A stretch of 40,060 nucleotides of DNA from a virus (lineage: Duplodnaviria > Heunggongvirae > Uroviricota > Caudoviricetes). The position numbers and the translations under genes are program-made. Positions 2,432-29,916 of the stretch are shown here, piece by piece. Where the stretch lies: IMG/VR virus record IMGVR_UViG_2563366805_000009; one strand, 5' to 3'. How positions within the stretch are numbered: position 1 is the first letter of the stretch; each line of letters begins with the position of its first letter. The notes beneath the pieces are model-generated. The model did not search any database. It was not told the DNA's origin and saw only the letters and a program-made list of their open reading frames with translations.

Positions 2432-2941
2432 ATGTTTGATTACCAAGTTTCCAAACATCCACATTTTGATGAAGCCTGTCGTGCATTCGCACTGCGCCAC
2501 AATCTGGTGCAACTGGCAGAACGTGCGGGCATGAATGTGCAGATTCTGCGGAACAAGCTGAACCCAGCTCAGCCTCATTTATTAACCGCACCAGAAATCT
2601 GGCTGCTTACCGATCTGACTGAAGATTCAACGCTGGTAGATGGTTTTCTGGCACAGATTCATTGTCTGCCATGTGTACCGATTAATGAGGTGGCAAAAGA
2701 GAAACTGCCACATTACGTCATGAGTGCAACCGCAGAGATCGGGCGTGTTGCTGCAGGTGCGGTATCTGGCGATGTAAAAACCAGTGCAGGTCGTCGTGAT
2801 GCTATCAGCAGCATTAACTCTGTAACACGACTGATGGCGTTGGCTGCTGTTTCATTGCAGGCCCGTTTACAGGCTAACCCTGCGATGGCGAGTGCAGTTG
2901 ATACCGTGACTGGCCTCGGTGCTTCATTCGGTTTGCTGTGA
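2432..2941 (+). CDS. cII: CII lysogeny-establishment activator (phage 186 CII family)
   Basis: [64 protein letters not shown] closely matches remembered 186 CII. ATG at 2432 follows GGAG and gives 169 aa. Confidence 0.8.
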
Positions 2942-2948
2942 GGTGCTT

Positions 2949-3245
2949 ATGCTGACGAAAGAACCATCATTTGCATCGCTGCTGGTAAAACAAAGCCCGG
3001 CAATGCACTACGGTCACGGCTGGATCACGGGTGAGGATGGAAAACGCTGGCATCCATGTCATTCACAAGATGAATTGCTGTCTGAATTGACCACGAGGAA
3101 ACGGAGAAAGTCCAAATGTATGCGGCAGAAAGTGAAGTGGTTTATCAGTTTCGTTACAGAGGGGAGAGTTATTCAGTACCTGAAGATGATTTGCTCTGTT
3201 GCTATCCGTCATTGTCGGGCGATGGCAGTTACTTTTTCGCGTTAA
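2949..3245 (+). CDS. Fil-like early protein
   Basis: MLTKEPSFASLLVKQSPAMHYGHGWI..GKRWHPC resembles the phage filamentation (Fil) family of 186-like phages. GAGG lies upstream of ATG 2949. The 3' end overlaps the next gene by 130 nt. Confidence 0.55.
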   Translation: MLTKEPSFASLLVKQSPAMHYGHGWITGEDGKRWHPCHSQDELLSELTTRKRRKSKCMRQKVKWFISFVTEGRVIQYLKMICSVAIRHCRAMAVTFSR

Positions 3246-3340
3246 AGGATGGGACGTTTTTACGGGGAGAGCAGGTTAAAGAGACGATACGAAAAAATGT
3301 ATCTCCTCTTGAGCGTTACCGTAAGAACAAAGAACGATAG
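3116..3340 (+). CDS. Hypothetical early protein (74 aa)
   Basis: GGAGAAAG RBS precedes ATG 3116. Same-strand position in the early operon. Confidence 0.5.
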   Translation: MYAAESEVVYQFRYRGESYSVPEDDLLCCYPSLSGDGSYFFALKDGTFLRGEQVKETIRKNVSPLERYRKNKER

Positions 3341-3362
3341 CTGCGTTTGGGGGATATGAAGT

Positions 3363-3704
3363 ATGGCAATTAATGGCGCTGCAGCAACTGTTCCATTAAG
3401 CCCCGGTGAACGCCTGAATGGACTTAATCACATTGCGGAGTTAAGGGCGAAAGTTTTTGGCCTGAATATTGAGTCAGAGCTTGAGCGGTTTATTAAAGAT
3501 ATGCGTGATCCACGGGATATCAATAATGAACAAAATAAACGGGCACTGGCTGCCATATTCTTTATGGCAAAAATTCCAGCTGAACGTCATAGCATCAGCA
3601 TTAATGAGCTGACCACTGACGAAAAGCGGGAGCTGATTAAAGCAATGAATCATTTTCGTGCAGTGGTGAGCTTATTTCCCAGACGGCTAACCATGCCGAA
3701 TTAA
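3363..3704 (+). CDS. Hypothetical early protein (113 aa)
   Basis: ORF with an upstream G-rich RBS, located in the early operon. Confidence 0.6.
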   Translation: MAINGAAATVPLSPGERLNGLNHIAELRAKVFGLNIESELERFIKDMRDPRDINNEQNKRALAAIFFMAKIPAERHSISINELTTDEKRELIKAMNHFRAVVSLFPRRLTMPN

Positions 3705-3771
3705 CCAACTAATGAAATTAATGGCGTAAACCCGCCGGGCATCCCTTTATCTAAATTCAGGAGAATTGATT

Positions 3772-4005
3772 ATGCGTAATATTGAAACCCTCACGACTAA
3801 AACCGGACCGGATGACGCAGGGCTTAATATTTTACTGACAGAGGCTCGTCTGGAAGAACGCCGGGCAAGGGCTGAAGCAATGGCAGCTCGCCTTGATAGC
3901 CTGGCGTGTCATATCTCATCCCGTCAGCTAAACCACGTGGAAGCGGCAGAACTGCTGCGTGTGACTGCTGAAGCAATCCAGAACGAAGCGCAGGAGATCC
4001 ACTAA
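3772..4005 (+). CDS. Hypothetical small helical early protein (77 aa)
   Basis: AGGAGA RBS lies 7 nt before ATG 3772. Its stop overlaps the next start (ATG 4005). Confidence 0.6.
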   Translation: MRNIETLTTKTGPDDAGLNILLTEARLEERRARAEAMAARLDSLACHISSRQLNHVEAAELLRVTAEAIQNEAQEIH

Positions 4006-4232
4006 TGGCTGATGCAATGGATCTCGTACAGCAGCGCGTTGAAGAAGAACGCCAGCGCCATATCCGTGCTGCCCGTGCCAAAACGCCGGGCGTGTCCCGC
4101 GTGCTTTGCGTTGAGTGTGAAGCGCCAATTCCGCCAGCACGCCGCCGTGCCATTCCGGGTGTGCAGCTTTGCATTACCTGTCAGGAAATCGCAGAGCTGA
4201 AAGGCAAACATTACAACGGGGGGGCTGTATGA
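4005..4232 (+). CDS. TraR/DksA-family C4 zinc-finger protein
   Basis: CVECEAPIP...CITCQ four-Cys motif in a 75-aa protein, as in P2 orf82-type proteins. Confidence 0.8.
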   Translation: MADAMDLVQQRVEEERQRHIRAARAKTPGVSRVLCVECEAPIPPARRRAIPGVQLCITCQEIAELKGKHYNGGAV

Positions 4233-5086
4233 GCACCATCCTGAAATGGGCGGGAAATAAAACCGCCGTAATGTCCGAACTGAAAAAACATCTTCCTGCT
4301 GGTCCGCGACTAGTTGAACCTTTCGCGGGTTCCTGTGCTGTGATGATGGAGACGGATTATCCCTGCTATCTGGTTGCGGATATTAATCCTGATTTAATCA
4401 ACCTCTATAAAAAGGTTGCCGCTGATTGTGAATCGTTTATATCTCGCGCCAAAGTTTTATTTGAGATCGCAAACAGGGAGGTGGCTTATTACAACATAAG
4501 GCAGGAGTTTAATTACTCAACTGAAATTACTGATTTCATGAAAGCGGTATATTTCCTGTATCTCAATCGTCACGGTTACCGTGGGTTATGTCGCTATAAC
4601 AAGAGCGGGCATTTCAACATTCCCTACGGTAATTATAAAAATCCGTATTTCCCTGAAAAAGAAATTCGCGCTTTTGCAGAAAAAGCCCAGCGAGCAACGT
4701 TTATCTGCGCCAGCTTTGATGAAACGCTGGCGATGTTGAAGGCGGGGGATGTGGTGTATTGCGATCCGCCTTATGACGGTACGTTTTCCGGCTATCACGC
4801 TGACGGCTTTACTGAAGATGACCAGTATCACCTGGCATCCGTTCTTGAACATCGGTCATCAGAAGGACATCCGGTCATTGTTTCTAACAGTGACACATCC
4901 CTGATCCGTTCGCTGTATCGCAATTTTACTCACCACTATATCAAGGTAAAACGCAGCATCGGCGTAGCAGCTGGTGAGAGTAAATCAGCAACAGAAATCA
5001 TTGCTGTTTCCGGGCCGCGCTGCTGGGTGGGATTTGATTATTCGCGTGGCGTGGATAGTTCTGCCGTGTACGGAGTACGTGCATGA
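4229..5086 (+). CDS. dam: DNA adenine methyltransferase (Dam-like, orphan)
   Basis: N-terminal LKWAGNK, FAGS (SAM-binding) and DPPY catalytic motifs. ATGA start/stop coupling with the upstream gene. No adjacent restriction gene. Confidence 0.9.
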
Positions 5087-7497
5087 GCCATGCCGATATG
5101 AGCAACTGCTGCGGCTTTAACGAGGCTGCCGCATCGTTCTCATGGAACAGCCCGAAAAAGGCCATTAACCCTTATCTGGACCCGGCGGAAGTTGCGCCGG
5201 TTTCTGCGCTTTCAAACCTGATCACTCTGTACGCTGCCGATAACGAGCAGGAACAACTGCGCCGCGAGGCACTGAGTGATCAGGTCTGGGAGCGTTATTT
5301 CTTTAATGAATCCCGTGATCCTGTCCAACGCGAAATAGAGCAGGATAAGCTCATTAGCCGGGCAAAGTTGGCGCATGAGCAGCAGCGTTTTAACCCGGAC
5401 ATGGTCATTCTGGCAGACGTCAGCGCCCAGCCCTCCCATATCAGCAAGCCGCTGATGCAACGTATTGAATACTTCAGCAGCTTGGGCAGGCCAAAGGCTT
5501 ATTCCCGCTATTTACGTGAGACGATTAAGCCATGTCTGGAACGACTGGAGCATGTACGCGACAGCCAGCTATCTGCATCTTTTCGTTTTATGGCAAGCCA
5601 TGTAGGGCTGGACGGCCTGCTGATTCTGCCTGAAATGAGTCAGGATCAGGTGAAACGCCTGTCTACCCTTGTCGCTGCGCATATGAGCATGTGCCTTGAT
5701 GCAGCTTGTGGTGATTTGTATGCCACCGATGACGTTAAGCCAGAAGAAATCCGCAAGACATGGGAAAAGGTGGCAGCGGAAACCCTGCGTCTGGATGTCA
5801 TCCCGCCTGCGTTTGAGCAACTCCGTCGGAAAAGAAACCGCCGTAAACCCGTGCCCTATGAACTCATTCCGGGTTCGCTGGCGCGTATGTTGTGCGCCGA
5901 CTGGTGGTACCGGAAATTATGGAAAATGCGTTGCGAATGGCGGGAAGAGCAGTTGCGTGCTGTCTGCCTGGTCAGCAAAAAAGCATCTCCCTATGTCAGC
6001 TATGAAGCCGTGATGCATAAACGTGAGCAGCGCCGCAAGTCACTGGAGTTTTTCCGTTCTCATGAACTGGTGAACGAAGAGGGCGACACGCTGGATATGG
6101 AAGACGTGGTAAACGCCAGCAGCAGCAACCCGGCGCACCGCCGCAATGAGATGATGGCCTGTGTTAAAGGTCTGGAGCTTATCGCGGAAATGCGCGGTGA
6201 CTGCGCCGTTTTCTACACCATTACCTGTCCGTCACGTTTCCATTCCACGCTCAATAACGGCAGACCAAACCCAACCTGGACAAATGCGACGGTAAGACAA
6301 AGCAGCGATTATCTGGTCGGCATGTTTGCTGCATTTCGTAAGGCGATGCACAAAGCCGGGTTGCGCTGGTATGGCGTGCGGGTGGCTGAGCCGCATCATG
6401 ACGGTACAGTTCACTGGCACCTGTTGTGTTTCATGCGCAAAAAAGACCGCCGCGCCATTACTGCATTGTTGCGTAAGTTTGCCATCCGTGAAGACCGCGA
6501 GGAACTGGGTAATAACACTGGTCCACGCTTTAAATCTGAGCTGATAAACCCGCGCAAAGGAACGCCGACAAGCTACATCGCGAAATACATCAGTAAGAAC
6601 ATTGACGGGCGTGGTCTGGCTGGCGAGATCAGCAAGGAAACGGGTAAATCCCTGCGTGATAACGCTGAATACGTTAATGCCTGGGCGTCTCTGCATCGTG
6701 TTCAGCAATTCCGCTTCTTTGGTATTCCGGGACGTCAGGCTTACCGTGAACTTCGCTTGCTGGCTGGTCAGGCGGCAAGGCAACAGGGTGACAAAAAAGC
6801 AGGTGCGCCGGTACTGGATAACCCGCGTCTTGATGCCATTCTGGCTGCTGCTGATGCTGGTTGTTTTGCCACCTACATCATGAAGCAGGGCGGCGTACTG
6901 GTTCCCCGCAAATATCACCTCATCAGAACCGCTTATGAAATCAACGAAGAGCCAACCGCCTATGGCGATCACGGTATTCGTATTTATGGCATCTGGTCAC
7001 CCATTGCAGAGGGCAAGATCTGCACTCATGCAGTGAAGTGGAAAATGGTTCGTAAGGCCGTTGACGTTCAGGAGGCGGCAGCCGACCAGGGCGCTTGCGC
7101 CCCTTGGACTCGTGGCAATAACTGTCCCCTTGCTGAAAATTTGAACCAACATGAGAAAGATGAATCAGCAGATGGGGATACCAGAACGGACATTACCTGC
7201 ATGGATGACAAGGAATTGCACGATTACCTGCACAGTATGAGCAAAAAAGAGCGCCGGGAACTGGCAGCAAGATTGCGCCTGGTTAAACCGAAACGGCGTA
7301 AAGACTACAAACAGCGAATTACAGAGTATCAGCGTCAGCAGCTCGTCTATGAACTGAAGTCCAGAGGATTTGATGGCAGCGAGAAAGAGGTCGATTTGCT
7401 CCTTTGCGGTGGCAGTATTCCGTCAGGAGCAGGCCTGCGTATCTTCTATCGGAACCAGCGTTTGCAGGAAGATGATAAGTGGCGGAACATGTATTAA
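5083..7497 (+). CDS. A: Replication initiation endonuclease gpA
   Basis: 804 aa with the HUH-type motif [13 protein letters not shown] and the catalytic Tyr motif [10 protein letters not shown], typical of P2/186 A proteins. Confidence 0.9.
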
Positions 7498-7749: not shown

Positions 7750-8902
7750 AATAGCTGCGCGGAATAGTAGATCACTGAAAGGGAACTCAGCCCGGATTGT
7801 GCGATCTGATCAATCGCCAAACCAACCAAAATCACCAACCGGACTGAGCGATGCCGATCATAGTACCAATACCCCGTGGCGAACGACGCCTGATGCAGAA
7901 AGCTATTCATAAAACGCGTGATAAAAATCATGCCCGCAGACTCACGGCCATGCTGATGCTTCATCGGGGTGAACGGGTCAGCGATGTTGCCAGAACTCTC
8001 TGTTGTGCCCGTTCATCCGTTGGTCGCTGGATTAACTGGTTTACGCACTCAGGTATTGAAGGCCTGAAATCCTTACCCGCAGGGCGCTCCCGACGCTGGC
8101 CTTTTGAACATATCTGCACCCTGTTACGTGAGCTGATAAAGCATTCTCCCGGCGATTTTGGTTATCAACGTTCACGCTGGAGCACCGAATTACTGGCAAT
8201 AAAAATCAATGAGATAACCGGTTGCCAGTTACATGCAGGAACCGTTCGCCGCTGGTTGCCATCTGCGGGGCTTGTATGGCGCAGGGCCGCGCCAACTCTG
8301 CGTATCCGTGACCCACATAAAGATGAAAAGATGGCGGTAATCCACAAAGCGCTGGATGAATGCAGCGCAGAGCATCCGGTATTTTATGAAGATGAAGTGG
8401 ATATCCACCTTAATCCTAAAATCGGTGCGGACTGGCAGTTGCGCGGACAGCAGAAACGGGTAGTGACGCCGGGGCAGAACGAAAAATACTATCTGGCCGG
8501 CGCACTGCACAGTGGCACGGGTAAAGTCAGCTACGTGGGCGGCAACAGCAAAAGTTCAGCGCTGTTTATCGCTCTGCTGAAGCACCTGAAAGCCACTTAC
8601 CGGCGGGCGAAAACAATCACGCTGATCGTTGATAACTACATTATCCATAAAAGCCGCGAAACACAGCGCTGGTTGAAAGCAAATCCCAAGTTCAGGGTAA
8701 TTTACCAGCCGGTTTACTCGCCGTGGGTGAATCATGTGGAACGGCTATGGCAGGCACTTCATGACACGATAACCCGTAATCATCAGTGCCGCTCAATGTG
8801 GCAGTTACTGAAAAAGGTCCGCCATTTTATGGAAACCGCCAGCCCATTCCCCGGAGGAAAACATGGTCAGGCAAAAGTGTAGCGGTATTAGGCGCAGCTA
8901 TT
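7750..8902 (+). mobile_element. IS630 (1153 bp, intact)
   Basis: Terminal inverted repeats: AATAGCTGCGCGGAATA at the left end, and the reverse complement AATAGCTGCGCCTAATA at the right end. TA duplication (7748-49 and 8903-04) within a CTAG target. The length equals the 1153 bp I recall for IS630. Confidence 0.9.
7851..8882 (+). CDS. IS630-family (Tc1/mariner-like) DDE transposase, 343 aa
   Basis: Full-length ORF between the IRs. N-terminal HTH regions and a DDE-type C-terminal domain (YEDEVDIHLNP ... LIVDNYIIHKS ... PWVNHVERLW). Confidence 0.95.
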   Translation: MPIIVPIPRGERRLMQKAIHKTRDKNHARRLTAMLMLHRGERVSDVARTLCCARSSVGRWINWFTHSGIEGLKSLPAGRSRRWPFEHICTLLRELIKHSPGDFGYQRSRWSTELLAIKINEITGCQLHAGTVRRWLPSAGLVWRRAAPTLRIRDPHKDEKMAVIHKALDECSAEHPVFYEDEVDIHLNPKIGADWQLRGQQKRVVTPGQNEKYYLAGALHSGTGKVSYVGGNSKSSALFIALLKHLKATYRRAKTITLIVDNYIIHKSRETQRWLKANPKFRVIYQPVYSPWVNHVERLWQALHDTITRNHQCRSMWQLLKKVRHFMETASPFPGGKHGQAKV

Positions 8903-9061: not shown

Positions 9062-9361
9062 TTAGTTGTTCCCCAAAGAGCCGGCCATGGCTGCATATTT
9101 AATTTCTTCGCTGGGTATTTCAGGATGTAGTTGAATTTGCCTGATGATATAGCCAGGAACTTCGTCACTCCACAGTTTCGCCGCGTCCTTACAGACCTTA
9201 TACGCGAAGTCTCTATTCTCAAAGGCATAGGATTTTCCGTATGCATATTGCTGACAGGCATGAACATAAGCTCCGAAGTCGCCGTCTTTATCTGGCAAAG
9301 CACATCCAGCTAAGGCTATGATGATTGCTACTAACGTAAAGGAGAAAGTTATACGTTTCAT
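9062..9361 (-). CDS. Lipoprotein, unknown function (99 aa)
   Basis: Signal peptide with lipobox LAGC (MKRITFSFTLVAIIIALAGC). Confidence 0.7.
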   Translation of the reverse strand: MKRITFSFTLVAIIIALAGCALPDKDGDFGAYVHACQQYAYGKSYAFENRDFAYKVCKDAAKLWSDEVPGYIIRQIQLHPEIPSEEIKYAAMAGSLGNN

Positions 9362-9469: not shown

Positions 9470-10276
9470 TTATTTAGAAAGGTACTTATCTCTAAGTTGA
9501 TTCAGTCTGTCAGCATCGCGTTCTGAAAACTCGGCGTCACCATAGATCGATTTCCCATCTGCGTCTTCAAGGCCAATGACTGTGACGGTAAATATAGCAT
9601 CAGCCGGAACTTTAAGTTTTCCCCAATCAGAGTATCTATTAGGGGCTAATTTCCAGTTGGCTTTCTCACCTGGTTCCAGACCTCCAGAAATTTTATAGTT
9701 GAAGACGTCAGAGAACCAAGGGACGCTTCTTCCTGGGCTGGCAATAACTCCTTTGAAGAATACTCTGGCAACCGCTTTGTCTGTTCCGTTTTCAACGCTA
9801 ATATCCAGAATTGGCTGATCATTGCCGTAATCCTCTTTCTGGAAATAAAAACGGGAACGTTCGACCTTGAAGGCTTTCATTTTTTCCGCAGCCTGTGTTG
9901 CAGAGGTTTGTTTGGCTTCCAGTTCTTTTATTTCTTGCAGAGCCTGTTCTTTCTCTCTCTTCTCACGCTCAAGGCGAATAGTTTGTGCGTAATTTATAAC
10001 CTCATCACCAGTTTTACCTTCCAACGCTGACTTAATTTTTGTTTCGTAGACGTCCCCAGAAGACGTTCCAGCCTGCATTAGCTCTCTCATGTTGATTTGG
10101 CTAAAGGCAACGACTTTAACTGCATCATCAAACTGAGCTTTTTTATCTGCAGGTAAGGACTCTCTTACTTTTTGAATGGACTCTTTCATCGACTGATCGC
10201 TTGATGCATCGATCTTCGGTTTGTCACAAGCAGTAAGCAGCAGAGCAAAAGCAATTACGCCAGTTAATTTCTTCAT
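9470..10276 (-). CDS. Lipoprotein, unknown function (268 aa)
   Basis: The internal Met at 10276 gives MKKLTGVIAFALLLTAC (lipobox LTAC). Central coiled-coil-like EKREKEQALQEIKELEAK segment. The 24-codon upstream extension in the ORF track lacks support. Confidence 0.75.
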   Translation of the reverse strand: MKKLTGVIAFALLLTACDKPKIDASSDQSMKESIQKVRESLPADKKAQFDDAVKVVAFSQINMRELMQAGTSSGDVYETKIKSALEGKTGDEVINYAQTIRLEREKREKEQALQEIKELEAKQTSATQAAEKMKAFKVERSRFYFQKEDYGNDQPILDISVENGTDKAVARVFFKGVIASPGRSVPWFSDVFNYKISGGLEPGEKANWKLAPNRYSDWGKLKVPADAIFTVTVIGLEDADGKSIYGDAEFSERDADRLNQLRDKYLSK

Positions 10277-10437
10277 ATCCCTATCCCAATCGTAAAAAAA
10301 CAAGGCTAATCCTAACAGGATTAGCGGGCATGACAAACTCATAGCCATATAGGTGTGCTGTATAAATTAGCGGGATGAGAAAGCCTGCACAGACCCTCAT
10401 GTTGAAACTTGATTTTAGCTCAAAAGAGCTGACACTA

Positions 10438-10618: not shown

Positions 10619-10805
10619 TAGTGTGTATTAAGCTGGCTCATATTTATGACTGGTTTCAAGGTTTGACCGATTTTCATGTCATGCATGTCTATGCTGCATG
10701 AGTTCGCATGATCGTTTGAGGATCGGTTTGGCTAAGACATGCCAGAACTGGCGGGCTTTTGCTCATGTCATGCAGGTGCATGAAAACTACTACATAAAGC
10801 GGGCA

Positions 10806-10824
10806 GGCGTGGCGGGGATACGAG
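10806..10824. other. Probable cos cohesive-end sequence
   Basis: GGCGTGGCGGGGATACGAG shares its first 13 nt with the 19-nt cohesive end I recall for phage 186 (GGCGTGGCGGGGAAAGCAT; P2 is GGCGAGGCGGGGAAAGCAC). It lies in a non-coding stretch between gene A and gene Q, as expected. Confidence 0.6.
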
Positions 10825-10983
10825 CGCGCGCTCGCTTAGTTTTGTAACACTCTGAGTAAGGTCGCTTTTTAGAAGCAAATGGCTTGCAAATTTTTTCAAC
10901 ATTGAGGTAATTTGTTAGGTATCGAAGGATAAATTAAGACAAGAGCAAATTCTTATTGCTTTTTGGATGACTAGGTGCAAGTT

Positions 10984-12090
10984 ATGACAGGTAGTGTCCC
11001 AGTAGTGCTTTCTGAGTCTGAGTTAAAGTCGATCTTGACCTTAACTGAACGTTTCACATGGAACGTTGCAAGGCCAATTATTGCGTCTTTAGGGCTGCCA
11101 ACAGGTAGGGGGCGTGAAGCAACAAACGAAAAAATACTAGAAAGCCTCATTGATCTTAAAAGTAAAGATAGGCAAAAGTTTGATGGCATTATGGCAAACG
11201 TAAATGACCTAATTTTGGGTCAGGTCGTTTATGGTGAAAAAGCAATATTTAGTTTGACTGTAGATAATAGTGTAATTAAAACACTAAATGACAGATTTAG
11301 TTTCCAATGGAATTTGATGAATCAACCATCATTATTGGTTGATTCGATCCTTGATGATGTCCAATTGCAAAATGCTGTAAAAAATCAACCTGAACTTGTT
11401 AATTATTCTATTCAAAACACCCAGTCAATACTTGTTTTTTCATCTGTCAGAGAATTAGTTGTAAGAGAAAAAATTCCCCCGTCAGCACTTGCGCAATACA
11501 AGCAGTTTGATGAAATTATTGCAAAGCGAAAAGAAAAGCGACAATGTTTTGATGTCTGTATATTAGACTCTGTTACTAATAAAATTCATGTTTTGGTAGA
11601 TACTAATGGTAATATTATTGGTGATAATGTTACTTTTGCAAAGAGTAACATTATTCGTGAATTGTATAATCATGTCGGTTATGAATTTAAATCATCGGAA
11701 AAAGATTTTTATCCGTTAATTGAGCCAATTTTCAAACAAAATTCATTGCCTTATTCAAAATTAAGCTATAAAGTCTTTGATTTGTCATTTTTGACGAATG
11801 AGGGGACTACGCATAAAGAAAAGAAAAATGTGGCCACTAAAGACTTACGTGATGATTTGTTTAATAAGGAAGGCATCAAAGCAGTAGGCAGTATTGGTTT
11901 GTATCGTATTGGAATTAGAGTTGATAGAAATAATCCAAAACTGCAATTAGCGGATAACGTAGAGCTTATCATTCCGGGAACACTCCGCAGGCATCTAGGA
12001 GGGAGTAGTTGCTCTCCTGTTAACTATGCTATATTAAGTAAATGTATATCCAAAGATGATTTCGAAACCCTCACAAAGCTGATATTATAA
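10984..12090 (+). CDS. Unknown protein, gene 1 of the three-gene cassette (368 aa)
   Basis: Long AT-rich ORF. ATG 10984 is preceded by TAGGTG; GTG 10975 is an alternative start. No Walker A or other motif I recognise. A possible helix-extended-helix-like N-terminal segment (LGLPTGRGREATNEKILESLIDL). Confidence 0.8.
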   Translation: MTGSVPVVLSESELKSILTLTERFTWNVARPIIASLGLPTGRGREATNEKILESLIDLKSKDRQKFDGIMANVNDLILGQVVYGEKAIFSLTVDNSVIKTLNDRFSFQWNLMNQPSLLVDSILDDVQLQNAVKNQPELVNYSIQNTQSILVFSSVRELVVREKIPPSALAQYKQFDEIIAKRKEKRQCFDVCILDSVTNKIHVLVDTNGNIIGDNVTFAKSNIIRELYNHVGYEFKSSEKDFYPLIEPIFKQNSLPYSKLSYKVFDLSFLTNEGTTHKEKKNVATKDLRDDLFNKEGIKAVGSIGLYRIGIRVDRNNPKLQLADNVELIIPGTLRRHLGGSSCSPVNYAILSKCISKDDFETLTKLIL

Positions 12091-12102
12091 TTGGAGTCAG
12101 CA

Positions 12103-12537
12103 ATGAAGGATGGTGATATGCCCAAGATCATCAAAGAAATGTGTGCAGAACGCCCTGAAATTGGGGCGTTAGCTTGCTATTTGTACGATGAAATCGAGGC
12201 AAGGGCTAAAAAATCATCAAATATAGCTTTAAGTTATAAGGATTTATTTAATATAGCTGGTGGTTATAATAAGGTTTTACAGCCAGAAACGTATGAGCAG
12301 GTTATCTATCCGGCCATACAAATTCTTTGTAGCCCAAAGGTTGATTTTTTAAAACTCAATTATTGGTTCATTGATGATTTTCATGACCCTGTAGAACTTG
12401 AAATAGAGGAAGTTATTGAGGCGGAAATCAGTCAATCTTTAGCAAACCCATTTACAGGGGAGCTTATGTATGACTATAAGTCATTCGTATTTCCTTTTTT
12501 TACATTAGATGAATCTAAATCAAAGGATATTATCTGA
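12103..12537 (+). CDS. Unknown small acidic protein, gene 2 of the cassette (144 aa)
   Basis: GGAG at 12093 with ATG at 12103, 12 nt after the gene-1 stop. Asp/Glu-rich. No recognisable motif. Confidence 0.75.
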   Translation: MKDGDMPKIIKEMCAERPEIGALACYLYDEIEARAKKSSNIALSYKDLFNIAGGYNKVLQPETYEQVIYPAIQILCSPKVDFLKLNYWFIDDFHDPVELEIEEVIEAEISQSLANPFTGELMYDYKSFVFPFFTLDESKSKDII

Positions 12538-13202
12538 TGTTAAAAATGTCTGCAGCAATGAGTTTGGCTGATATTGATAATGATATTTTTCTTCAGCGTA
12601 TTAATGCTTCTATTACTCGTGTTAGATTTGCACTTCAATCGTACGATAATTTCAAACAATTTGTCAGGATTGAACTTGATTCTGCTGTAAAGGAAATAGA
12701 AGAGAATTCAAATAAGTTAAACTTCGATTTAACAGAAGATCAGCTTACTTTAATTTTATTGGCCAATATCAAAAATAAAGATATGGGCATTGAAGCATTT
12801 CATGAAAATAATCAGCGCGGACATTGTGATATTACAATAAAACTAAAGGATTATATTTGGCATGGCGAAGCCAAAAAACATACATCTTCATATAGTTATT
12901 TATTTAAAGGGTATGCTCAACTCACTGAACGATATAGTACAGGGACCGTAGACAGCGCAAGTGGTGGATTGATTATCTATACTCGTAATAGAAAATGTAA
13001 TGAAATGATGAGCAACTGGAAGGCGCATTTAGATAAATTCGCACCAAGAATTCATGCCTGTAAATCTATAACGATTACTCCTTGTCAAAAAAATCCATTG
13101 GTTTTTTATAGCCAGCATGTTCACACAGTTACTCAACTGAATTATGAAGTTATTCATTACCCTGTAAATCTATATCATGAGCCTGTAGATCCGGATCTTT
13201 AA
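12537..13202 (+). CDS. Putative PD-(D/E)xK-fold nuclease, gene 3 of the cassette (221 aa)
   Basis: Its start overlaps the gene-2 stop (TGATG). The sequence GIEAFHE..GHCDITIKLKDYIWHGEAKKH gives an E...D(98)-x12-E(111)-x-K(113) pattern typical of restriction-endonuclease-like folds. Confidence 0.75.
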   Translation: MLKMSAAMSLADIDNDIFLQRINASITRVRFALQSYDNFKQFVRIELDSAVKEIEENSNKLNFDLTEDQLTLILLANIKNKDMGIEAFHENNQRGHCDITIKLKDYIWHGEAKKHTSSYSYLFKGYAQLTERYSTGTVDSASGGLIIYTRNRKCNEMMSNWKAHLDKFAPRIHACKSITITPCQKNPLVFYSQHVHTVTQLNYEVIHYPVNLYHEPVDPDL

Positions 13203-13242
13203 GTTTTAATGCTCATGTCTTGGTGATTTTAAACTAAAGAAT

Positions 13243-13266
13243 AAAAGCCTGTTTGTACAGGCTTTT
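13243..13266. terminator. Bidirectional rho-independent terminator
   Basis: AAAAGCCTG-tttgta-CAGGCTTTT. The A-run/T-run flanks serve both the cassette (+) and gene Q (-). Confidence 0.7.
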
Positions 13267-13271
13267 AAATA

Positions 13272-14309
13272 TCATTCAATACCTAAATTATAATCTTCAA
13301 AACGCATGACTTCTTCTCCAAGCCAGTCGTTCAATTCCTGAAGGCGCTTCTGCAGAGGTATCAACTCGTTGCGAACAAAGACGCGGCTGGCTTTCTCCAC
13401 ATCCCCAAAACCCCCAACATTACTCGGCATAATCCCCATCATTTGCGGCGGCACACGATGTGCTGCCATCATGTCATCCCGACTCACGTTCTTGATATTC
13501 AAAAACTCATCCTTCGCTGCGACCTCTGACAACGGGATAATCTGAAGTCCGTCCTTTTTGCCGTTAGGCGAGTACATAAACAGATTGCGGAAGTTGCCAG
13601 GGCCTTTGGCGCTTTTCATTGCGTTGCGGAGGTTGTTCACATCTTCCTGGTTCTGCGCGGCATCGGTCATATACATGATGAAGCCTGCATGGCTACCGTT
13701 AATGTAATACTTGCGGCGGAACAGCGTGGCGGACTCGTTGAGCAGGGCTGACGGAATGGCAGAAAGATAACCGGGCAGGCCGTAGATCTCCTGGTTGATG
13801 TCCGGTTCCATCAGATGAAAAATGCTGCCTTTCGTGAACTGATACGGCAGGGTTGTCATACCGTATTGCACAAACCAGTAGGTATCCAGGTCTAATCCGC
13901 GTCGGGTGTATTTTGCAAGCGCAGGCTCAATAGCGATAACTTCACCGAATCGGTTCGTGCGTTTCTCCAGGTAGGCGTTACCAAATACCAGATAGTCCTG
14001 CACAAAACGCGAAAAAGCCTGCTGGCTGAGCAGCGGATGAGGGATATAGGTACTGGTCAGAATGTTGCACTTTACTGCAATCGGGGAACTGTGATGCACG
14101 GCGGCGCGGAAGGTGCGCGCCAGTCCGTCAAAGCTGACGGGCGGCTCATACCAACGGTCCATCTGTACGCATTCCACATAATCCAGCAGTTCTCGGCGGT
14201 CCAGAACAGGAACGGGATCGCCGAAGCTGAATGCTTCGGCTGTAGTTTGACTTTTAAGCTGGATCTGTTTCGTCGCCGCAGCGCGGTTCTTCTTACTCTT
14301 TCCCATCAA
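13272..14309 (-). CDS. Q: Portal protein gpQ
   Basis: 345 aa. Position and sequence are typical of P2 Q (PBSX-family portal), with the stop of P overlapping its start. Confidence 0.9.
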   Translation of the reverse strand: MMGKSKKNRAAATKQIQLKSQTTAEAFSFGDPVPVLDRRELLDYVECVQMDRWYEPPVSFDGLARTFRAAVHHSSPIAVKCNILTSTYIPHPLLSQQAFSRFVQDYLVFGNAYLEKRTNRFGEVIAIEPALAKYTRRGLDLDTYWFVQYGMTTLPYQFTKGSIFHLMEPDINQEIYGLPGYLSAIPSALLNESATLFRRKYYINGSHAGFIMYMTDAAQNQEDVNNLRNAMKSAKGPGNFRNLFMYSPNGKKDGLQIIPLSEVAAKDEFLNIKNVSRDDMMAAHRVPPQMMGIMPSNVGGFGDVEKASRVFVRNELIPLQKRLQELNDWLGEEVMRFEDYNLGIE

Positions 14310-24518: not shown

Positions 24519-25897
24519 GCACAAAATTTTATACCCTGCTGACGGATATTGGCGCGGCGAAACTTGTCAGCGCCGCCGCGCTCGGTGTGCCGCTAAAAAT
24601 TACCCATATGGCGGTGGGCGATGGTGGCGGAACATTGCCGACGCCGGACGCAAAGCAGAGTGCACTGGTAAATGAGAAACGTCGGGCTGCGCTGAATATG
24701 CTCTATATCGACCCACAGAACAGCAGCCAGATTATTGCTGAACAGGTGATCCCTGAAAACGAGGGCGGTTGGTGGATACGTGAAGTGGGCCTGTTTGATG
24801 AGTCAGGGGCATTGATTGCCGTGGGCAACTGCCCGGAAAGCTATAAGCCGCAACTGGCTGAAGGCAGCGGGCGTACCCAGACCGTGCGCATGGTGCTGAT
24901 TACCAGCAGCACGGACAATATCACCCTGAAAATCGACCCTGCTGTAGTGCTGGCAACCCGCAAGTATGTGGATGACAAGGCACTGGAGCTGAAGGTGTAC
25001 GCGGATGATCAGATGGCAAAACATCTTGCCGCACCGGACCCGCATTCACAGTATGCAGCCAAAGAAAGTCCTACGTTTACCGGGACACCCAAAGCGCCAA
25101 CGCCAGCGACGGGGAATAACACCACGCAGGTTGCGACCACCGCATTTGTTCAGGCGGCACTGACGGCTCTTATTAATGATGCGCCAGCCACGCTGGACAC
25201 GCTGAAAGAAATAGCCGTAGCCATTAACAATGATCCGAAATTCAGTACCACCATTAACAATGCGCTGGCACTGAAAGCGCCGCTGTCGAGTCCGGCACTC
25301 ACCGGAACGCCAACCGCACCGACTGCGGCACAGTCGGTCAACAATACACAGATTGCCACCACGGCATTTGTGAAATCGGCGATTGCGGCAATGGTGGGTT
25401 CTGCACCTGCGGCACTGGATACACTGAACGAACTGGCGGCGGCGCTGGGGAATGACCCGAACTTTGCCACGACAATGCTTAATGCACTGGCAGGTAAACA
25501 ACCGCTGGACAATACGCTGACTCATTTGAGTGGAAAGGATGTTGCTAGTCTTCTCGCATACCTTGGTTTGGGAGAAGCGGCAAAACGGAATGTGGGAACA
25601 GGGGAAAATCAGATACCTGATATGTCATCATATGCATCAGGTTCAGGCTGGCGAAAAATGCCAGATGGTTCAATTGAACAGTGGGGACGAATTAGTTTTC
25701 CTGGTGAACACGGGCCTGTATCCGCCAATGTTTCATTCCCGATTCCATTTACACAGACACCTGGCATTGTAATTGTGTGCGATGGTGGTTTCGGGGGCGG
25801 GAATATGTGGGGGGCGACCAACTGGAGCACTACCGGCTTCATAGCTCACTGCAATTATGGTCTTGAAGGTGGTGCGTTTTTCGCTAAGGGCTGGTAA
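24515..25897 (+). CDS. H: Tail fibre protein gpH (constant part fused to variable cassette Sv1)
   Basis: 460 aa with tail-fibre repeats (TTAFV..AP..LDTL.E.A.A..NDP.F.TT..NAL..K.PL, twice). Crossover site ix1 lies in-frame at 25551-25576. The C-terminal 110 aa (25565..25897) form the invertible cassette. Confidence 0.9.
25551..25576. other. Invertase crossover site ix1 (Hc half / Sv1 half)
   Basis: TTCTCGCATACC-TT-GGTTTGGGAGAA is a 26-bp imperfect palindrome resembling hix/gix/pix sites (compare hixL, TTCTTGAAAACC-AA-GGTTTTTGATAA). Confidence 0.75.
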
Positions 25898-26340
25898 TGA
25901 TGAAATATCTGTACGTAAACAACCTGGCATATCCTTACGAACTTCAGTCTCTTTATGTTGAAAAAGGTGAATGGCCTGAAGAAAAAGGTGTTGATATAGA
26001 CGAAGTAATTTTCAGGGAATATTTCTATGACACACCACCAGAAGGAAAATACAGATGTGTTGGAGAAGATGGACTGCCTGCATGGGCAGATATTCCTCCA
26101 CCAACACGTGAAGAACAAATTGCATCAGCCGAAACTAAAAAGCAGCAATTGATTAATCAGGCCAACGATTATATGAACAGTAGACAATGGGTTGGTAAAG
26201 CGGCTATTGGTCGTCTGAAAGGTGAGGAACTGGCGCAATATAATTTGTGGCTGGATTATCTGGACGCACTGGAGCTGGTCGATACTTCCGGTGCACCAGA
26301 TATTGAATGGCCTACGCCTCCGGCAGTTCAGGCCAGATGA
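25897..26340 (+). CDS. Tail fibre assembly chaperone Tfa1 (partner of Sv1, gpG/Mu U-like)
   Basis: 147 aa. ATGA coupling to the H stop. The C-terminal tail-fibre-assembly motif region overlaps the convergent Tfa2 gene. Confidence 0.85.
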   Translation: MMKYLYVNNLAYPYELQSLYVEKGEWPEEKGVDIDEVIFREYFYDTPPEGKYRCVGEDGLPAWADIPPPTREEQIASAETKKQQLINQANDYMNSRQWVGKAAIGRLKGEELAQYNLWLDYLDALELVDTSGAPDIEWPTPPAVQAR

Positions 26341-26914
26341 CATCCGGCGCGGTGCTGGTATCTGTTGCCGTCACCGCGTCAATGTAATCCAGCACGGCGT
26401 TAAGGCGGGTTGTTTCTGCCTGCGTCAGCTTCCGTCCGGCCTGTAATTTCAGTTGAATCAGACTGATGGAGGCCATTGCAGTATCAATCAGCGACTGGCG
26501 CTGTGCTTCTGCTGCATCTACTGCTGCGCCGTGCTGTGCCTCAGTATCGGTCACCCATTTCTCACCATCCCATTTATCGTATGGCGTTAACGGGGCGATA
26601 GTGGTTGTATTTTCAGGGTAATCACCCGGAGTTGTGATTTCTTTGGCTTCTCCCGTTTCGGTGTTATAGACGATTTCACCGCGATGGTCTGGCACATATT
26701 CCCATGAGTTAAAATCTGCAGAACGGCAGATAGCATAACCAGCCTTATATGTGCCTGGTGAATCTAAACAGGAATATGCCGGGATACCAACACCAACGGC
26801 AAGATATTCATTTGAAGTGGAAATATATTCCCGTATTTCACCATCATAGTTATAGACGGTAATATTCCCTGCCTTCGTGGCAATAATCTCGCTATTTAAT
26901 ACAGCGTTATCCAT
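26312..26914 (-). CDS. Tail fibre assembly chaperone Tfa2 (partner of Sv2), copy 1
   Basis: 200 aa. Convergent with Tfa1, as for Mu U/U'. Confidence 0.8.
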   Translation of the reverse strand: MDNAVLNSEIIATKAGNITVYNYDGEIREYISTSNEYLAVGVGIPAYSCLDSPGTYKAGYAICRSADFNSWEYVPDHRGEIVYNTETGEAKEITTPGDYPENTTTIAPLTPYDKWDGEKWVTDTEAQHGAAVDAAEAQRQSLIDTAMASISLIQLKLQAGRKLTQAETTRLNAVLDYIDAVTATDTSTAPDVIWPELPEA

Positions 26915-27393
26915 TATGCAGCCCTCACAATATAATTAAAGGCAATGTTACGTGGGCGGTTCTCATTTGCGGTTGGGACAACGGCTGAAGCATTAAAATT
27001 CGCATACAGGGAGCGTTGATACCCGGATGCTGATGCACCACTTAATGCGGGAGCTTTTGACTCCGAAGCCGAAAAGGCCCCTGACACGTATCCTAATAAC
27101 CCTTGTGAATCGCCAATTGAACTGTAGCCAACCACCCCGGTAATGTTTCGGATAGCATCTCCTTGTGCTGAAAGCAGAGTTCGCCCACTATCCACTCCCT
27201 TTCCACCATCCCAGCCACGAATAAACTCACCGCGTAAATCAGGCAATTTTAACGTCGGGTAAGCCTTTGCCAGATTAGGGTAATCTTCAGCAGAAAAAGC
27301 CGCACCGTTGCATTTCAGCCAGCCTGTTGGCGGTGTGGCTGAAGGCCATGGAACAGGCACACCAACAGGCAGCGCAGAGCCTTCCCCTAAACC
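26914..27393 (-). CDS. Silent alternative tail-fibre C-terminal cassette Sv2, copy 1 (no start of its own)
   Basis: The frame is continuous from crossover site ix2. GLGEGSALPVGVPVPWPSATPPTGWLKCNGAAFSAEDYP is a Mu S / tail-collar-type receptor-binding C-terminus. Confidence 0.75.
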   Translation of the reverse strand, partial: GLGEGSALPVGVPVPWPSATPPTGWLKCNGAAFSAEDYPNLAKAYPTLKLPDLRGEFIRGWDGGKGVDSGRTLLSAQGDAIRNITGVVGYSSIGDSQGLLGYVSGAFSASESKAPALSGASASGYQRSLYANFNASAVVPTANENRPRNIAFNYIVRAA

Positions 27394-27407
27394 AACGTTT
27401 AAGAAAA
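27382..27407. other. Crossover site ix2 (Sv2 half / invertase-side half)
   Basis: TTCCCCTAAACC-AA-CGTTTAAGAAAA. Confidence 0.7.
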
Positions 27408-27437: not shown

Positions 27438-27463
27438 TTCTCGCATACCTTGGTTTAGGGGAA
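27438..27463. other. Crossover site ix3 (duplicated Hc half / Sv2 half)
   Basis: TTCTCGCATACC-TT-GGTTTAGGGGAA, preceded by a 21-bp copy of the H constant region (27417..27437 is identical to 25530..25550). Confidence 0.7.
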
Positions 27464-27931
27464 GGCTCTGCGCTGCCTGTTGGTGTGCCTGTTCCATGGC
27501 CTTCAGCCACACCGCCAACAGGCTGGCTGAAATGCAACGGTGCGGCTTTTTCTGCTGAAGATTACCCTAATCTGGCAAAGGCTTACCCGACGTTAAAATT
27601 GCCTGATTTACGCGGTGAGTTTATTCGTGGCTGGGATGGTGGAAAGGGAGTGGATAGTGGGCGAACTCTGCTTTCAGCACAAGGAGATGCTATCCGAAAC
27701 ATTACCGGGGTGGTTGGCTACAGTTCAATTGGCGATTCACAAGGGTTATTAGGATACGTGTCAGGGGCCTTTTCGGCTTCGGAGTCAAAAGCTCCCGCAT
27801 TAAGTGGTGCATCAGCATCCGGGTATCAACGCTCCCTGTATGCGAATTTTAATGCTTCAGCCGTTGTCCCAACCGCAAATGAGAACCGCCCACGTAACAT
27901 TGCCTTTAATTATATTGTGAGGGCTGCATAA
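27452..27931 (+). CDS. Sv2 cassette, copy 2 (not joined to full-length H)
   Basis: Mirror image of 26914..27393. Confidence 0.7.
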   Translation, partial: GLGEGSALPVGVPVPWPSATPPTGWLKCNGAAFSAEDYPNLAKAYPTLKLPDLRGEFIRGWDGGKGVDSGRTLLSAQGDAIRNITGVVGYSSIGDSQGLLGYVSGAFSASESKAPALSGASASGYQRSLYANFNASAVVPTANENRPRNIAFNYIVRAA

Positions 27932-28533
27932 TGGATAACGCTGTATTAAATAGCGAGATTATTGCCACGAAGGCAGGGAATATTACCGTCTATAACTATG
28001 ATGGTGAAATACGGGAATATATTTCCACTTCAAATGAATATCTTGCCGTTGGTGTTGGTATCCCGGCATATTCCTGTTTAGATTCACCAGGCACATATAA
28101 GGCTGGTTATGCTATCTGCCGTTCTGCAGATTTTAACTCATGGGAATATGTGCCAGACCATCGCGGTGAAATCGTCTATAACACCGAAACGGGAGAAGCC
28201 AAAGAAATCACAACTCCGGGTGATTACCCTGAAAATACAACCACTATCGCCCCGTTAACGCCATACGATAAATGGGATGGTGAGAAATGGGTGACCGATA
28301 CTGAGGCACAGCACGGCGCAGCAGTAGATGCAGCAGAAGCACAGCGCCAGTCGCTGATTGATACTGCAATGGCCTCCATCAGTCTGATTCAACTGAAATT
28401 ACAGGCCGGACGGAAGCTGACGCAGGCAGAAACAACCCGCCTTAACGCCGTGCTGGATTACATTGACGCGGTGACGGCAACAGATACCAGCACCGCGCCG
28501 GATGTCATCTGGCCTGAACTGCCGGAGGCGTAG
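27931..28533 (+). CDS. Tfa2, copy 2
   Basis: Translation identical to 26312..26914. Confidence 0.75.
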   Translation: MDNAVLNSEIIATKAGNITVYNYDGEIREYISTSNEYLAVGVGIPAYSCLDSPGTYKAGYAICRSADFNSWEYVPDHRGEIVYNTETGEAKEITTPGDYPENTTTIAPLTPYDKWDGEKWVTDTEAQHGAAVDAAEAQRQSLIDTAMASISLIQLKLQAGRKLTQAETTRLNAVLDYIDAVTATDTSTAPDVIWPELPEA

Positions 28534-28948
28534 GCCATTCAATATCTGGTGCACCGGAAGTATCGACCAGCTCCAGTGCGTCCAGATAATCCAGCCACAA
28601 ATTATATTGCGCCAGTTCCTCACCTTTCAGACGACCAATAGCCGCTTTACCAACCCATTGTCTACTGTTCATATAATCGTTGGCCTGATTAATCAATTGC
28701 TGCTTTTTAGTTTCGGCTGATGCAATTTGTTCTTCACGTGTTGGTGGAGGAATATCTGCCCATGCAGGCAGTCCATCTTCTCCAACACATCTGTATTTTC
28801 CTTCTGGTGGTGTGTCATAGAAATATTCCCTGAAAATTACTTCGTCTATATCAACACCTTTTTCTTCAGGCCATTCACCTTTTTCAACATAAAGAGACTG
28901 AAGTTCGTAAGGATATGCCAGGTTGTTTACGTACAGATATTTCATCAT
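28505..28948 (-). CDS. Tfa1, copy 2
   Basis: Translation identical to 25897..26340. Confidence 0.75.
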   Translation of the reverse strand: MMKYLYVNNLAYPYELQSLYVEKGEWPEEKGVDIDEVIFREYFYDTPPEGKYRCVGEDGLPAWADIPPPTREEQIASAETKKQQLINQANDYMNSRQWVGKAAIGRLKGEELAQYNLWLDYLDALELVDTSGAPDIEWPTPPAVQAR

Positions 28949-29280
28949 TACCAGCCCTTAGCGAAAAACGCACCACCTTCAAGACCATAATTGCAGTGAG
29001 CTATGAAGCCGGTAGTGCTCCAGTTGGTCGCCCCCCACATATTCCCGCCCCCGAAACCACCATCGCACACAATTACAATGCCAGGTGTCTGTGTAAATGG
29101 AATCGGGAATGAAACATTGGCGGATACAGGCCCGTGTTCACCAGGAAAACTAATTCGTCCCCACTGTTCAATTGAACCATCTGGCATTTTTCGCCAGCCT
29201 GAACCTGATGCATATGATGACATATCAGGTATCTGATTTTCCCCTGTTCCCACATTCCGTTTTGCCGCTTCTCCCAAACC
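28948..29280 (-). CDS. Sv1 cassette, copy 2 (silent)
   Basis: Mirror image of 25565..25897 ([23 protein letters not shown]...). Confidence 0.7.
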
Positions 29281-29294
29281 AACGTTTAAGAAAA
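29269..29294. other. Crossover site ix4 (Sv1 half / invertase-side half)
   Basis: TTCTCCCAAACC-AA-CGTTTAAGAAAA. Confidence 0.7.
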
Positions 29295-29349
29295 TGCAGA
29301 GGTAACAGCTAACTGGCATCATCTCCGGTTTTTATTCAGGGGGATGATC

Positions 29350-29916
29350 ATGCTTATTGGCTATGTACGCGTGTCAACAAATGACCAGAACACCGATTTG
29401 CAACGTAATGCACTGAACTGCGCGGGATGTGAGCGGATTTTTGAGGACAAAATCAGTGGCACTAAGTCCGACAGACCGGGGCTGAAAAAACTACTCAGGA
29501 CACTATCGGCAGGAGACACGCTGGTTGTCTGGAAGCTGGACAGGTTGGGGCGCAGTATGCGGCATCTTGTTACGCTGATAGAAGAGTTGCGCCAGCGTGG
29601 TGTGAATTTCAGAAGCCTGACTGACAGTATTGATACCAGTACCCCAATGGGCCGTTTCTTTTTTCATGTCATGGGTGCCCTGGCTGAAATGGAACGCGAA
29701 CTGATAGTTGAACGTACCAGGGCAGGGCTGGCTGCAGCTCGTGCCAAAGGCAGAGTAGGTGGACGCCGTCCTAAGTTGACCACCGAACAGTGGGCACAGA
29801 TTGGGCGTTTACTCGAGGCCGGAGAATCAAGACAGCGTATTGCACTGATTTTTGATGTAGGCGTTTCTACCATTTATAGAAAATTTCCGGCAAATAAGAT
29901 CAATGAATCCCCCTGA
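29350..29916 (+). CDS. Serine DNA invertase (Hin/Gin/Cin/Pin family)
   Basis: MLIGYVRVSTNDQNTDLQRNAL..DTLVVWKLDRLGRSMRHL..MGRFFFHVMGALAEMERELI is near-identical in pattern to e14 Pin / Mu Gin. It has a C-terminal HTH. Confidence 0.95.
   Translation: MLIGYVRVSTNDQNTDLQRNALNCAGCERIFEDKISGTKSDRPGLKKLLRTLSAGDTLVVWKLDRLGRSMRHLVTLIEELRQRGVNFRSLTDSIDTSTPMGRFFFHVMGALAEMERELIVERTRAGLAAARAKGRVGGRRPKLTTEQWAQIGRLLEAGESRQRIALIFDVGVSTIYRKFPANKINESP

Follow-up and report, generated by a model that had tools for sequence, protein, structure and literature searches.

A three-gene cassette beside cos in a 186-like P2-family prophage of Escherichia coli is a candidate anti-phage defence system

The cassette and its place in the prophage

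The DNA analysed here (IMG/VR record IMGVR_UViG_2563366805_000009, 40,060 nt, referred to below as the window) is a 186-like P2-family E. coli prophage in which genes for the CI repressor, CII, Fil, a Dam-like methylase and the replication protein A are followed by Q, P and the late genes. Between gene A (5083–7497, matched by the family Phage_GPA) and the portal gene Q (13272–14309, minus strand), and adjoining cos, lies a cassette of three genes (g1, g2 and g3). It was acquired horizontally and occupies the variable site next to cos, where P2-family prophages carry their hotspot cargo; in P2 this hotspot harbours old and tin (PMC9122126). An original prediction made from the letters of the sequence had described three same-strand open reading frames of 368, 144 and 221 amino acids, tightly coupled, and all three lie where it placed them, on the plus strand. 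g1 (10984–12090) encodes 368 amino acids from an ATG at 10984, which is the start used by RefSeq in the identical copy of strain ECONIH4, with a GTG at 10975 as a possible alternative. A gap of 12 nt (ttggagtcagca, with GGAG inside) separates its stop codon from the ATG of g2 (12103–12537, 144 amino acids), and the stop of g2 and the start of g3 (12537–13202, 221 amino acids) share a TGATG overlap, so that both of the features on which the claim of tight coupling rested are present.

On its left the variable site of this P2/186-type prophage is bounded by the cos core GGCGTGGCGGGGATACGAG (10806–10824, plus strand; an exact single match), and the same core sequence also adjoins a cloned P2-hotspot system (Rousset et al., 2022, Table S2A). 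From cos to g1 runs an AT-rich spacer of 159 nt (10825–10983, plus strand) in which the ribosome-binding site AGGTG precedes the g1 ATG by 7 nt; the cassette start originally put at 10860 falls inside this spacer, g1 itself beginning at 10984. On the other side a hairpin with an 11-bp stem and a 4-nt loop (13242–13267) lies between g3 and Q, which are convergent. This had been predicted to be a bidirectional terminator shared by the two genes, and the hairpin is there, but only its minus-strand orientation was called as a terminator by the scan, the plus-strand side being the hairpin and then TTTTAAAT. The G+C content of the cassette is 0.342 (g1 0.344, g2 0.349 and g3 0.329) against 0.513 for Q, 0.571 for P and 0.528 for A. 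The predicted contrast in composition with the backbone therefore holds, although the accompanying spot count of 68% does not, as it exceeds every 300-nt window of the sequence, for which the maximum is 0.61.

In a set of 5,426 complete E. coli genomes the cassette was found in 21 (nine with a copy at least 99% identical and 12 with an allele that is 85% identical), compared with 1,235 that carry a related portal gene and 1,267 that carry the cos core. Homology around cos in these 1,267 genomes is limited to about 150 nt (query positions 213–363, or approximately 10682–10832 of the window) and breaks on both sides. Because the cassette is rare relative to the carriers of cos and portal gene, and because homology at the cos flank is lost in both directions, it is accessory cargo at a recombination hotspot, as had been proposed; with 21 carriers only, it is not conserved as a core region of all P2-like phages. 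The cassette region is identical to that of strains ECONIH4, MS 115-1 and others. Across 36 loci the identity of the cargo is uncoupled from that of the backbone, and at one of them (L030) Q is 93% and P 99% identical, with the trio at 62, 52 and 65%. The ratio of nonsynonymous to synonymous substitution (dN/dS) between the two E. coli alleles is 0.13 for g1, 0.14 for g2 and 0.06 for g3, and all three genes are therefore under purifying selection.

Predicted folds and partners

The predicted structure of g3 has the restriction-endonuclease-like α/β core of the PD-(D/E)xK superfamily. Its best structural matches are the type II enzymes OkrAI, BamHI, BstYI and BglII, with McrC also present, and in the structure search it resembles CdiA-CT DNase toxins as well. 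Type IIP enzymes of the BamHI/OkrAI/BglII group are the closest solved folds and have the same catalytic layout as g3, at an identity of only 6–9%. Residues E67, D98, E111, K113 and Q128 do not vary among 36 close relatives or among 81 divergent ones, so that the PD-(D/E)xK-like signature noted in the original prediction (D98, E111 and K113) is real. From its sequence and modelled fold g3 is a predicted metal-dependent DNase and the probable effector of the cassette. A Pfam match of g3 to Rep3_C was below the curated cut-off and was set aside.

This kinship with restriction enzymes brings in what is the main mechanistic rival to triggered defence, constitutive type IV-like restriction, in which g3 would be a modification- or structure-dependent enzyme, g1 a sliding clamp that loads it onto DNA and g2 a bridge, and in which foreign DNA would be cut constitutively with no abortive step. 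That the best folds for g3 are orthodox type II enzymes together with McrC fits this scheme, as does the fact that RdgC-type rings, the fold group to which g1 is assigned below, encircle DNA (PMC11077077). The lack of a methyltransferase belonging to the cassette fits it too, and sets the cassette apart from restriction-modification systems, the Dam-like methyltransferase at 4169–5086 being a backbone gene. However, there is no evident DNA-recognition domain outside the nuclease core of g3, a small acidic partner whose translation overlaps that of the nuclease is more like an inhibitor than a bridge, and the NACHT/STAND and TIR proteins with which the g3 domain is partnered elsewhere typify triggered, often abortive systems. 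We consider direct restriction unlikely, if somewhat less so than the other alternatives discussed below.

For g1, a basic protein (isoelectric point 8.5), the predicted structure shows the base and centre domain fold of the RdgC type, with matches to RdgC, IML3, CHL4 and CENP-L. At the level of sequence it does not belong to the RdgC family, as a g1 profile gave nothing at E ≤ 10 against PDB sequences, and g1 has no sequence similarity to a RexA-like protein. The sole Pfam match, DUF7628, was below the curated cut-off and was set aside. RexA, the λ exclusion sensor, is a DNA-binding protein with the two-domain fold of the RdgC type (PMC11077077), and by analogy g1 may also be a DNA binder of the RdgC/RexA type, which we propose to be the sensor of the cassette. 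A Foldseek search with the g1 model returned phage RdgC-type proteins annotated as ‘recombination-associated protein’ or ‘exonuclease’, and as E. coli RdgC modulates RecA (PMC11077077) the trio might instead be a module of phage DNA metabolism, pairing an RdgC-like recombination modulator with an exonuclease in the manner of phage recombination or anti-RecBCD functions and having no part in defence. We regard this as very improbable. The cassette is dispensable, since it is carried by less than 2% of related prophages; it is convergent to the phage genes and foreign to them in base composition; and g3 is like restriction enzymes and unlike the recombination exonucleases of the λ-Exo/YqaJ type.

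Small size and acidity had been predicted for g2 (144 amino acids, isoelectric point 4.43), and it is also the fastest-evolving member of the trio. It matched no known family. It always lies immediately upstream of g3, and its stop overlaps the g3 start both in the window and at each of the nine distant loci examined. The C-terminal half of g2 shares homology with the C-terminus of a protein with a TIR domain and two transmembrane helices that precedes a g3 homologue (BLASTP E 4e-7; full-length alignment). Matches of the g2 profile to designed armadillo-repeat proteins were summed weak repeat matches and nothing more, and the idea that g2 is a split-off HEAT/ARM module of HEAT–nuclease fusions was dropped because the profile gives no match to such fusion proteins. 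The universal translational coupling, the acidity, the fast evolution and the fusion in the TIR protein suggest that g2 is a g3-binding inhibitor or adaptor. The role of nuclease effector originally assigned to g3 thus gains from the restriction-endonuclease fold and the invariant residues, and the looser roles given to the other two (sensor, regulator or antitoxin) can be sharpened to those of a putative RdgC/RexA-fold DNA binder and a putative g3-binding module. The Walker A motif stated to be missing is indeed found in none of g1, g2 and g3.

The arrangement of g2 and g3 also calls to mind a toxin–antitoxin or addiction module, with g3 as toxin, g2 as labile antitoxin and g1 as regulator, which would serve primarily to stabilise the element and protect against phage only secondarily. 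A small acidic gene directly upstream of, and overlapping, the nuclease gene is in the order expected of a type II module, and g3 resembles the CdiA-CT DNase toxins, which small immunity proteins neutralise; g2 recalls the immunity proteins of CdiA-CT/CdiI pairs, but the cassette has no delivery domain. A conserved third gene of 350–370 codons would, however, be unusual in a type II system, and integrated prophages have no need of segregational stabilisation. On these grounds, and on those of genomic context given in the next section, we think an addiction module improbable and keep to defence, with g3 held or docked by g2, as the preferred reading.

Wider family, genomic contexts and known systems

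Searched against 1.84 billion proteins, a g3 profile identified 568 cluster representatives (50% identity), of which 445 have E ≤ 1e-10. Of the first 36 loci compared, 35 keep the order g1–g2–g3. Nine distant members of the g3 family that are stand-alone proteins each have an overlapping gene of about 135–150 codons upstream and, wherever the contig extends that far, a gene of about 350–380 codons further upstream; g1 and g2 profiles confirmed the homology in all six distant loci scanned. As the distant loci keep the upstream genes and the homology is confirmed by profile, it is the trio and not g3 alone that is the conserved unit.

The g3 domain also occurs in other architectures. The TIR protein mentioned above forms a two-gene variant with the g3 homologue that follows it (2765–4764 of the metagenomic phage contig Ga0604934_0015514, locus L003). 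It has 458 amino acids, made up of the TIR domain, the two transmembrane helices and the g2-like C-terminal domain, and its gene overlaps that of the g3 homologue; here it seems to be the g2 domain by which g3 is docked. Several long proteins have the g3 domain at their C-terminus, behind an NTPase of the NACHT or NB-ARC type and repeats of the HEAT or TPR type, and in the NACHT fusions this domain is the only plausible effector. Such proteins recall the antiviral STAND/NLR-like systems (Avs, bNACHT), from which the trio differs in having no NTPase match and in having its nuclease as a separate protein that would work with g1 and g2. A further fusion (P0220, locus L045, 984–2054) places a g3-like domain before a Peptidase_S24 domain of the LexA/UmuD type, with a g2-sized gene of 136 codons upstream, and may link the nuclease to RecA-stimulated self-cleavage.

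Trios were found in a variety of mobile elements: in the primase–psu hotspot of a P4-like satellite in Providencia, beside ArdC and an integrase in a Pantoea integrative element, in lambdoid prophages, between the antiterminator gene Q and stx1AB in Stx1a-converting phages, on a 6.1-kb mobilizable Col plasmid of Klebsiella and on larger plasmids of several phyla. On one metagenomic contig the trio adjoins a complete Gabija system (GajA E 3e-295, GajB E 8e-241) and on another it lies between Hachiman HamA and a Ppl-like gene. A defence system would be expected to be spread over mobile elements and defence islands in just this way. In a phage collection searched by megablast there was no match to the cassette, and a protein-mode search of the collection found homologues. 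The Stx1a-converting phage Stx1_499 (LC567825.1) carries a divergent full trio at 3475–5582 (g3 35% identical), which is antisense to late transcription.

These contexts bear on the alternatives already raised. The trio is the main cargo of the 6.1-kb plasmid, as an addiction module might be, but this plasmid already has a RelE/ParE module, and the Gabija, Hachiman and Ppl-like neighbours together with the NACHT fusions of the g3 domain point to immunity. A module of phage DNA metabolism would have no phage replication to serve on plasmids, in an integrative element or in chromosomal defence islands. Anti-defence genes can also sit in variable phage hotspots, and many inhibitor proteins share the small size and acidity of g2, so that the cassette could in principle be counter-defence cargo whose proteins inhibit the immunity of the host or of competitors, for instance through the binding of DNA ends or the degradation of a signal. 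This would leave unexplained the NACHT–HEAT fusions and TIR pairing of the g3 domain, which are defence architectures, the presence of the trio in bacterial defence islands and on plasmids, and a conserved catalytic set that is that of a DNA nuclease; we give counter-defence the least credence of all. All three non-defence explanations (addiction, phage recombination and counter-defence) are less likely than defence.

Scans of g1, g2 and g3 against Pfam and NCBIfam gave no usable match, matches in PHROGs were to families of unknown function only, and PADLOC-DB 2.0.0 returned zero families at E ≤ 1 for the three proteins and likewise for one member of a distant trio. Thus no confident homology to a non-defence function or to a named defence system emerged from the Pfam, NCBIfam and PADLOC scans. 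The description of the cassette as undescribed needs one correction. It is unnamed and was not tested by Rousset et al. (2022), but it is listed there as ‘System #91’, with no Pfam domains and in 36 of 18,150 P2 hotspot loci (Table S5B; accession numbers in Table S5A). No later paper naming or testing it was found in a literature search of limited reach, outside which the newest DefenseFinder models fall. The accessions and motifs of the cassette were absent from the full texts searched and from the supplements of the DefensePredictor paper, the trio is not described in the main texts of the 2026 P2/P4 paper and of the domain-centric discovery paper, and a literature search for RdgC-like defence components returned the RexA structure paper only.

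Some named systems are close enough in setting or composition to require comparison. Rst_3HP (‘hp + hp + hp’; Rousset et al., 2022) likewise consists of three hypothetical-protein genes in the same cos-proximal P2 hotspot, but its proteins have about 346, 377 and 227 amino acids compared with 368, 144 and 221 here. Comparison with the validated Rst_3HP (pFR109) gave no BLASTP match below E 0.6 and no profile or PADLOC match, and as the proteins are unrelated the cassette is not 3HP. P2 old and tin occupy the same locus (A, cos, Q) and follow the same logic of prophage cargo that excludes other phages, but have no sequence relation to the trio, Old being an ATPase–TOPRIM nuclease and Tin a single protein; identity with Tin, or with a RexA-like protein, was rejected by sequence comparison. 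λ RexAB is similar in being prophage-encoded accessory immunity, and RexA and g1 belong to the same fold group. RexB, however, is a membrane protein, whereas the trio has no hydrophobic segment (maximum 19-residue hydropathy ≤ 1.07) and the partners of g1 are instead a soluble nuclease and a small acidic protein. Hachiman combines the nuclease HamA with the helicase HamB; the trio has three components and not two, lacks a helicase, an ATPase and a Walker A motif, has an RdgC-fold protein in place of the helicase, and gave no PADLOC match to HamA or HamB. The cassette is an as yet uncharacterised candidate for a defence system. Its set of components is unusual, its family is large and was previously unconnected, its locus is a known hotspot, and it had already been catalogued, though not studied.

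Proposed mode of action and significance

We lean, with moderate confidence, towards the view that the cassette acts as a three-component anti-phage defence system. In the mechanism that we propose, g3 would be the effector, a metal-dependent PD-(D/E)xK DNase. g2, made just before g3 from overlapping codons, would bind it and either hold it inactive or dock it. g1, basic and with the DNA-encircling RdgC/RexA fold, would survey DNA for a state specific to infection, candidates being incoming or replicating phage DNA and intermediates of recombination or replication. g1 would then lift the block imposed by g2 and g3 would cut DNA, destroying either the phage genome or phage and host DNA together, the latter outcome being abortive infection. 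The phenotype, the binding of g3 by g2, the activation, the direction of signalling and the trigger of g1 are the parts of this scheme that we infer. The defence reading draws on the anatomy of the cassette, its foreign composition, accessory status and purifying selection, the conserved synteny, the contexts in defence islands and several mobile-element hotspots, and the modular exchange with TIR and NACHT proteins, and also on the predicted folds, above all the restriction-endonuclease fold of g3, and the invariance of its catalytic residues; with no match to a non-defence function, the original proposal of defence cargo is upheld to this extent.

Several points weigh against this view. The TIR variant L003 has no g1, and for this reason g1 is possibly an exchangeable effector or accessory instead of a sensor; g3 itself could be the DNA sensor. 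Phage RdgC-type proteins are usually annotated as recombination accessories. On the chromosome of Klebsiella sp. I138 (locus L005, 6422–7551) g1 is split into open reading frames of 145 and 233 codons beside intact g2 and g3, probably by a frameshift, for which decay and sequencing error are both possible causes. The cassette presumably has its own promoter in the 10825–10983 spacer, but a promoter scan of this region gave nothing above background, and expression in the lysogen is for that reason putative. Finally, Rousset et al. (2022) catalogued the cassette, yet their tables of tested systems omit it, and no experiment on protection or toxicity by it was found in the literature searched. 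A still broader proposal, which we put forward tentatively and hold to be rather doubtful, is that the cassette stands as founding example for an immune system that is widespread and unnamed. Infection would there be sensed by an RdgC/RexA-fold DNA clamp, which would control the restriction-fold nuclease by way of a small docking domain that can be exchanged; this domain would also link the nuclease to TIR membrane proteins, and NACHT–HEAT receptors would reuse the nuclease domain.

Other features of the prophage and of its relatives are recorded here. A second block of cargo, on the gene-A side of cos, comprises genes on the minus strand for a lipoprotein of 99 amino acids (9062–9361) and a DUF6694 lipoprotein of 292 amino acids (9470–10348), with a G+C content of 0.43. 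The shorter protein (WP_000822802) shares locus rows with the trio in Table S5A of Rousset et al. (2022), and the two lipoproteins might have a role in surface exclusion. An IS630-type transposase gene (DDE_3 and HTH domains; 7851–8882, plus strand) is inserted just past gene A; the otherwise identical ECONIH4 prophage lacks this insertion and has instead an IS1 that splits the DUF6694 lipoprotein gene. E. coli MS 115-1, with its identical copy of the cassette, is the named source of the NucC structure 6p7p, so that a laboratory strain already offers the cassette. Further along the window is an inverted repeat of 1,857 nt (25551–27407 and 27438–29294; 99% complementary, arms 30 nt apart), which spans the C-terminal region of the tail fibre and Caudo_TAP assembly genes and adjoins a serine recombinase gene (Resolvase and HTH_7; 29344–29916). 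This looks like an invertible host-range switch of the tail fibre, with mirrored copies that are unusually long and nearly identical.

If the cassette is a defence system, it represents a defence family that PADLOC-DB 2.0.0 misses and of which the g3 family alone numbers 568 clusters at 50% identity; in clinical Enterobacterales it travels on P2- and P4-like elements, in Stx1 phages and on small plasmids. The RdgC/RexA fold would then have two roles in immunity, and the cassette would provide a soluble, tractable system in which to ask what proteins of this kind sense on DNA, a question that λ Rex leaves open. The g2 domain, common to the cassette and the TIR protein, would be a new instance of the modular wiring of sensors to effectors. 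Were the cassette also the founding example proposed above, it would extend Rex-type DNA sensing, unexplained for decades, to systems whose output is a soluble nuclease, and an adaptor module new to bacterial immunity would be defined. In practical terms, the host range of phages used in therapy against E. coli, Klebsiella and Enterobacter could be influenced by whether the strains carry the cassette.

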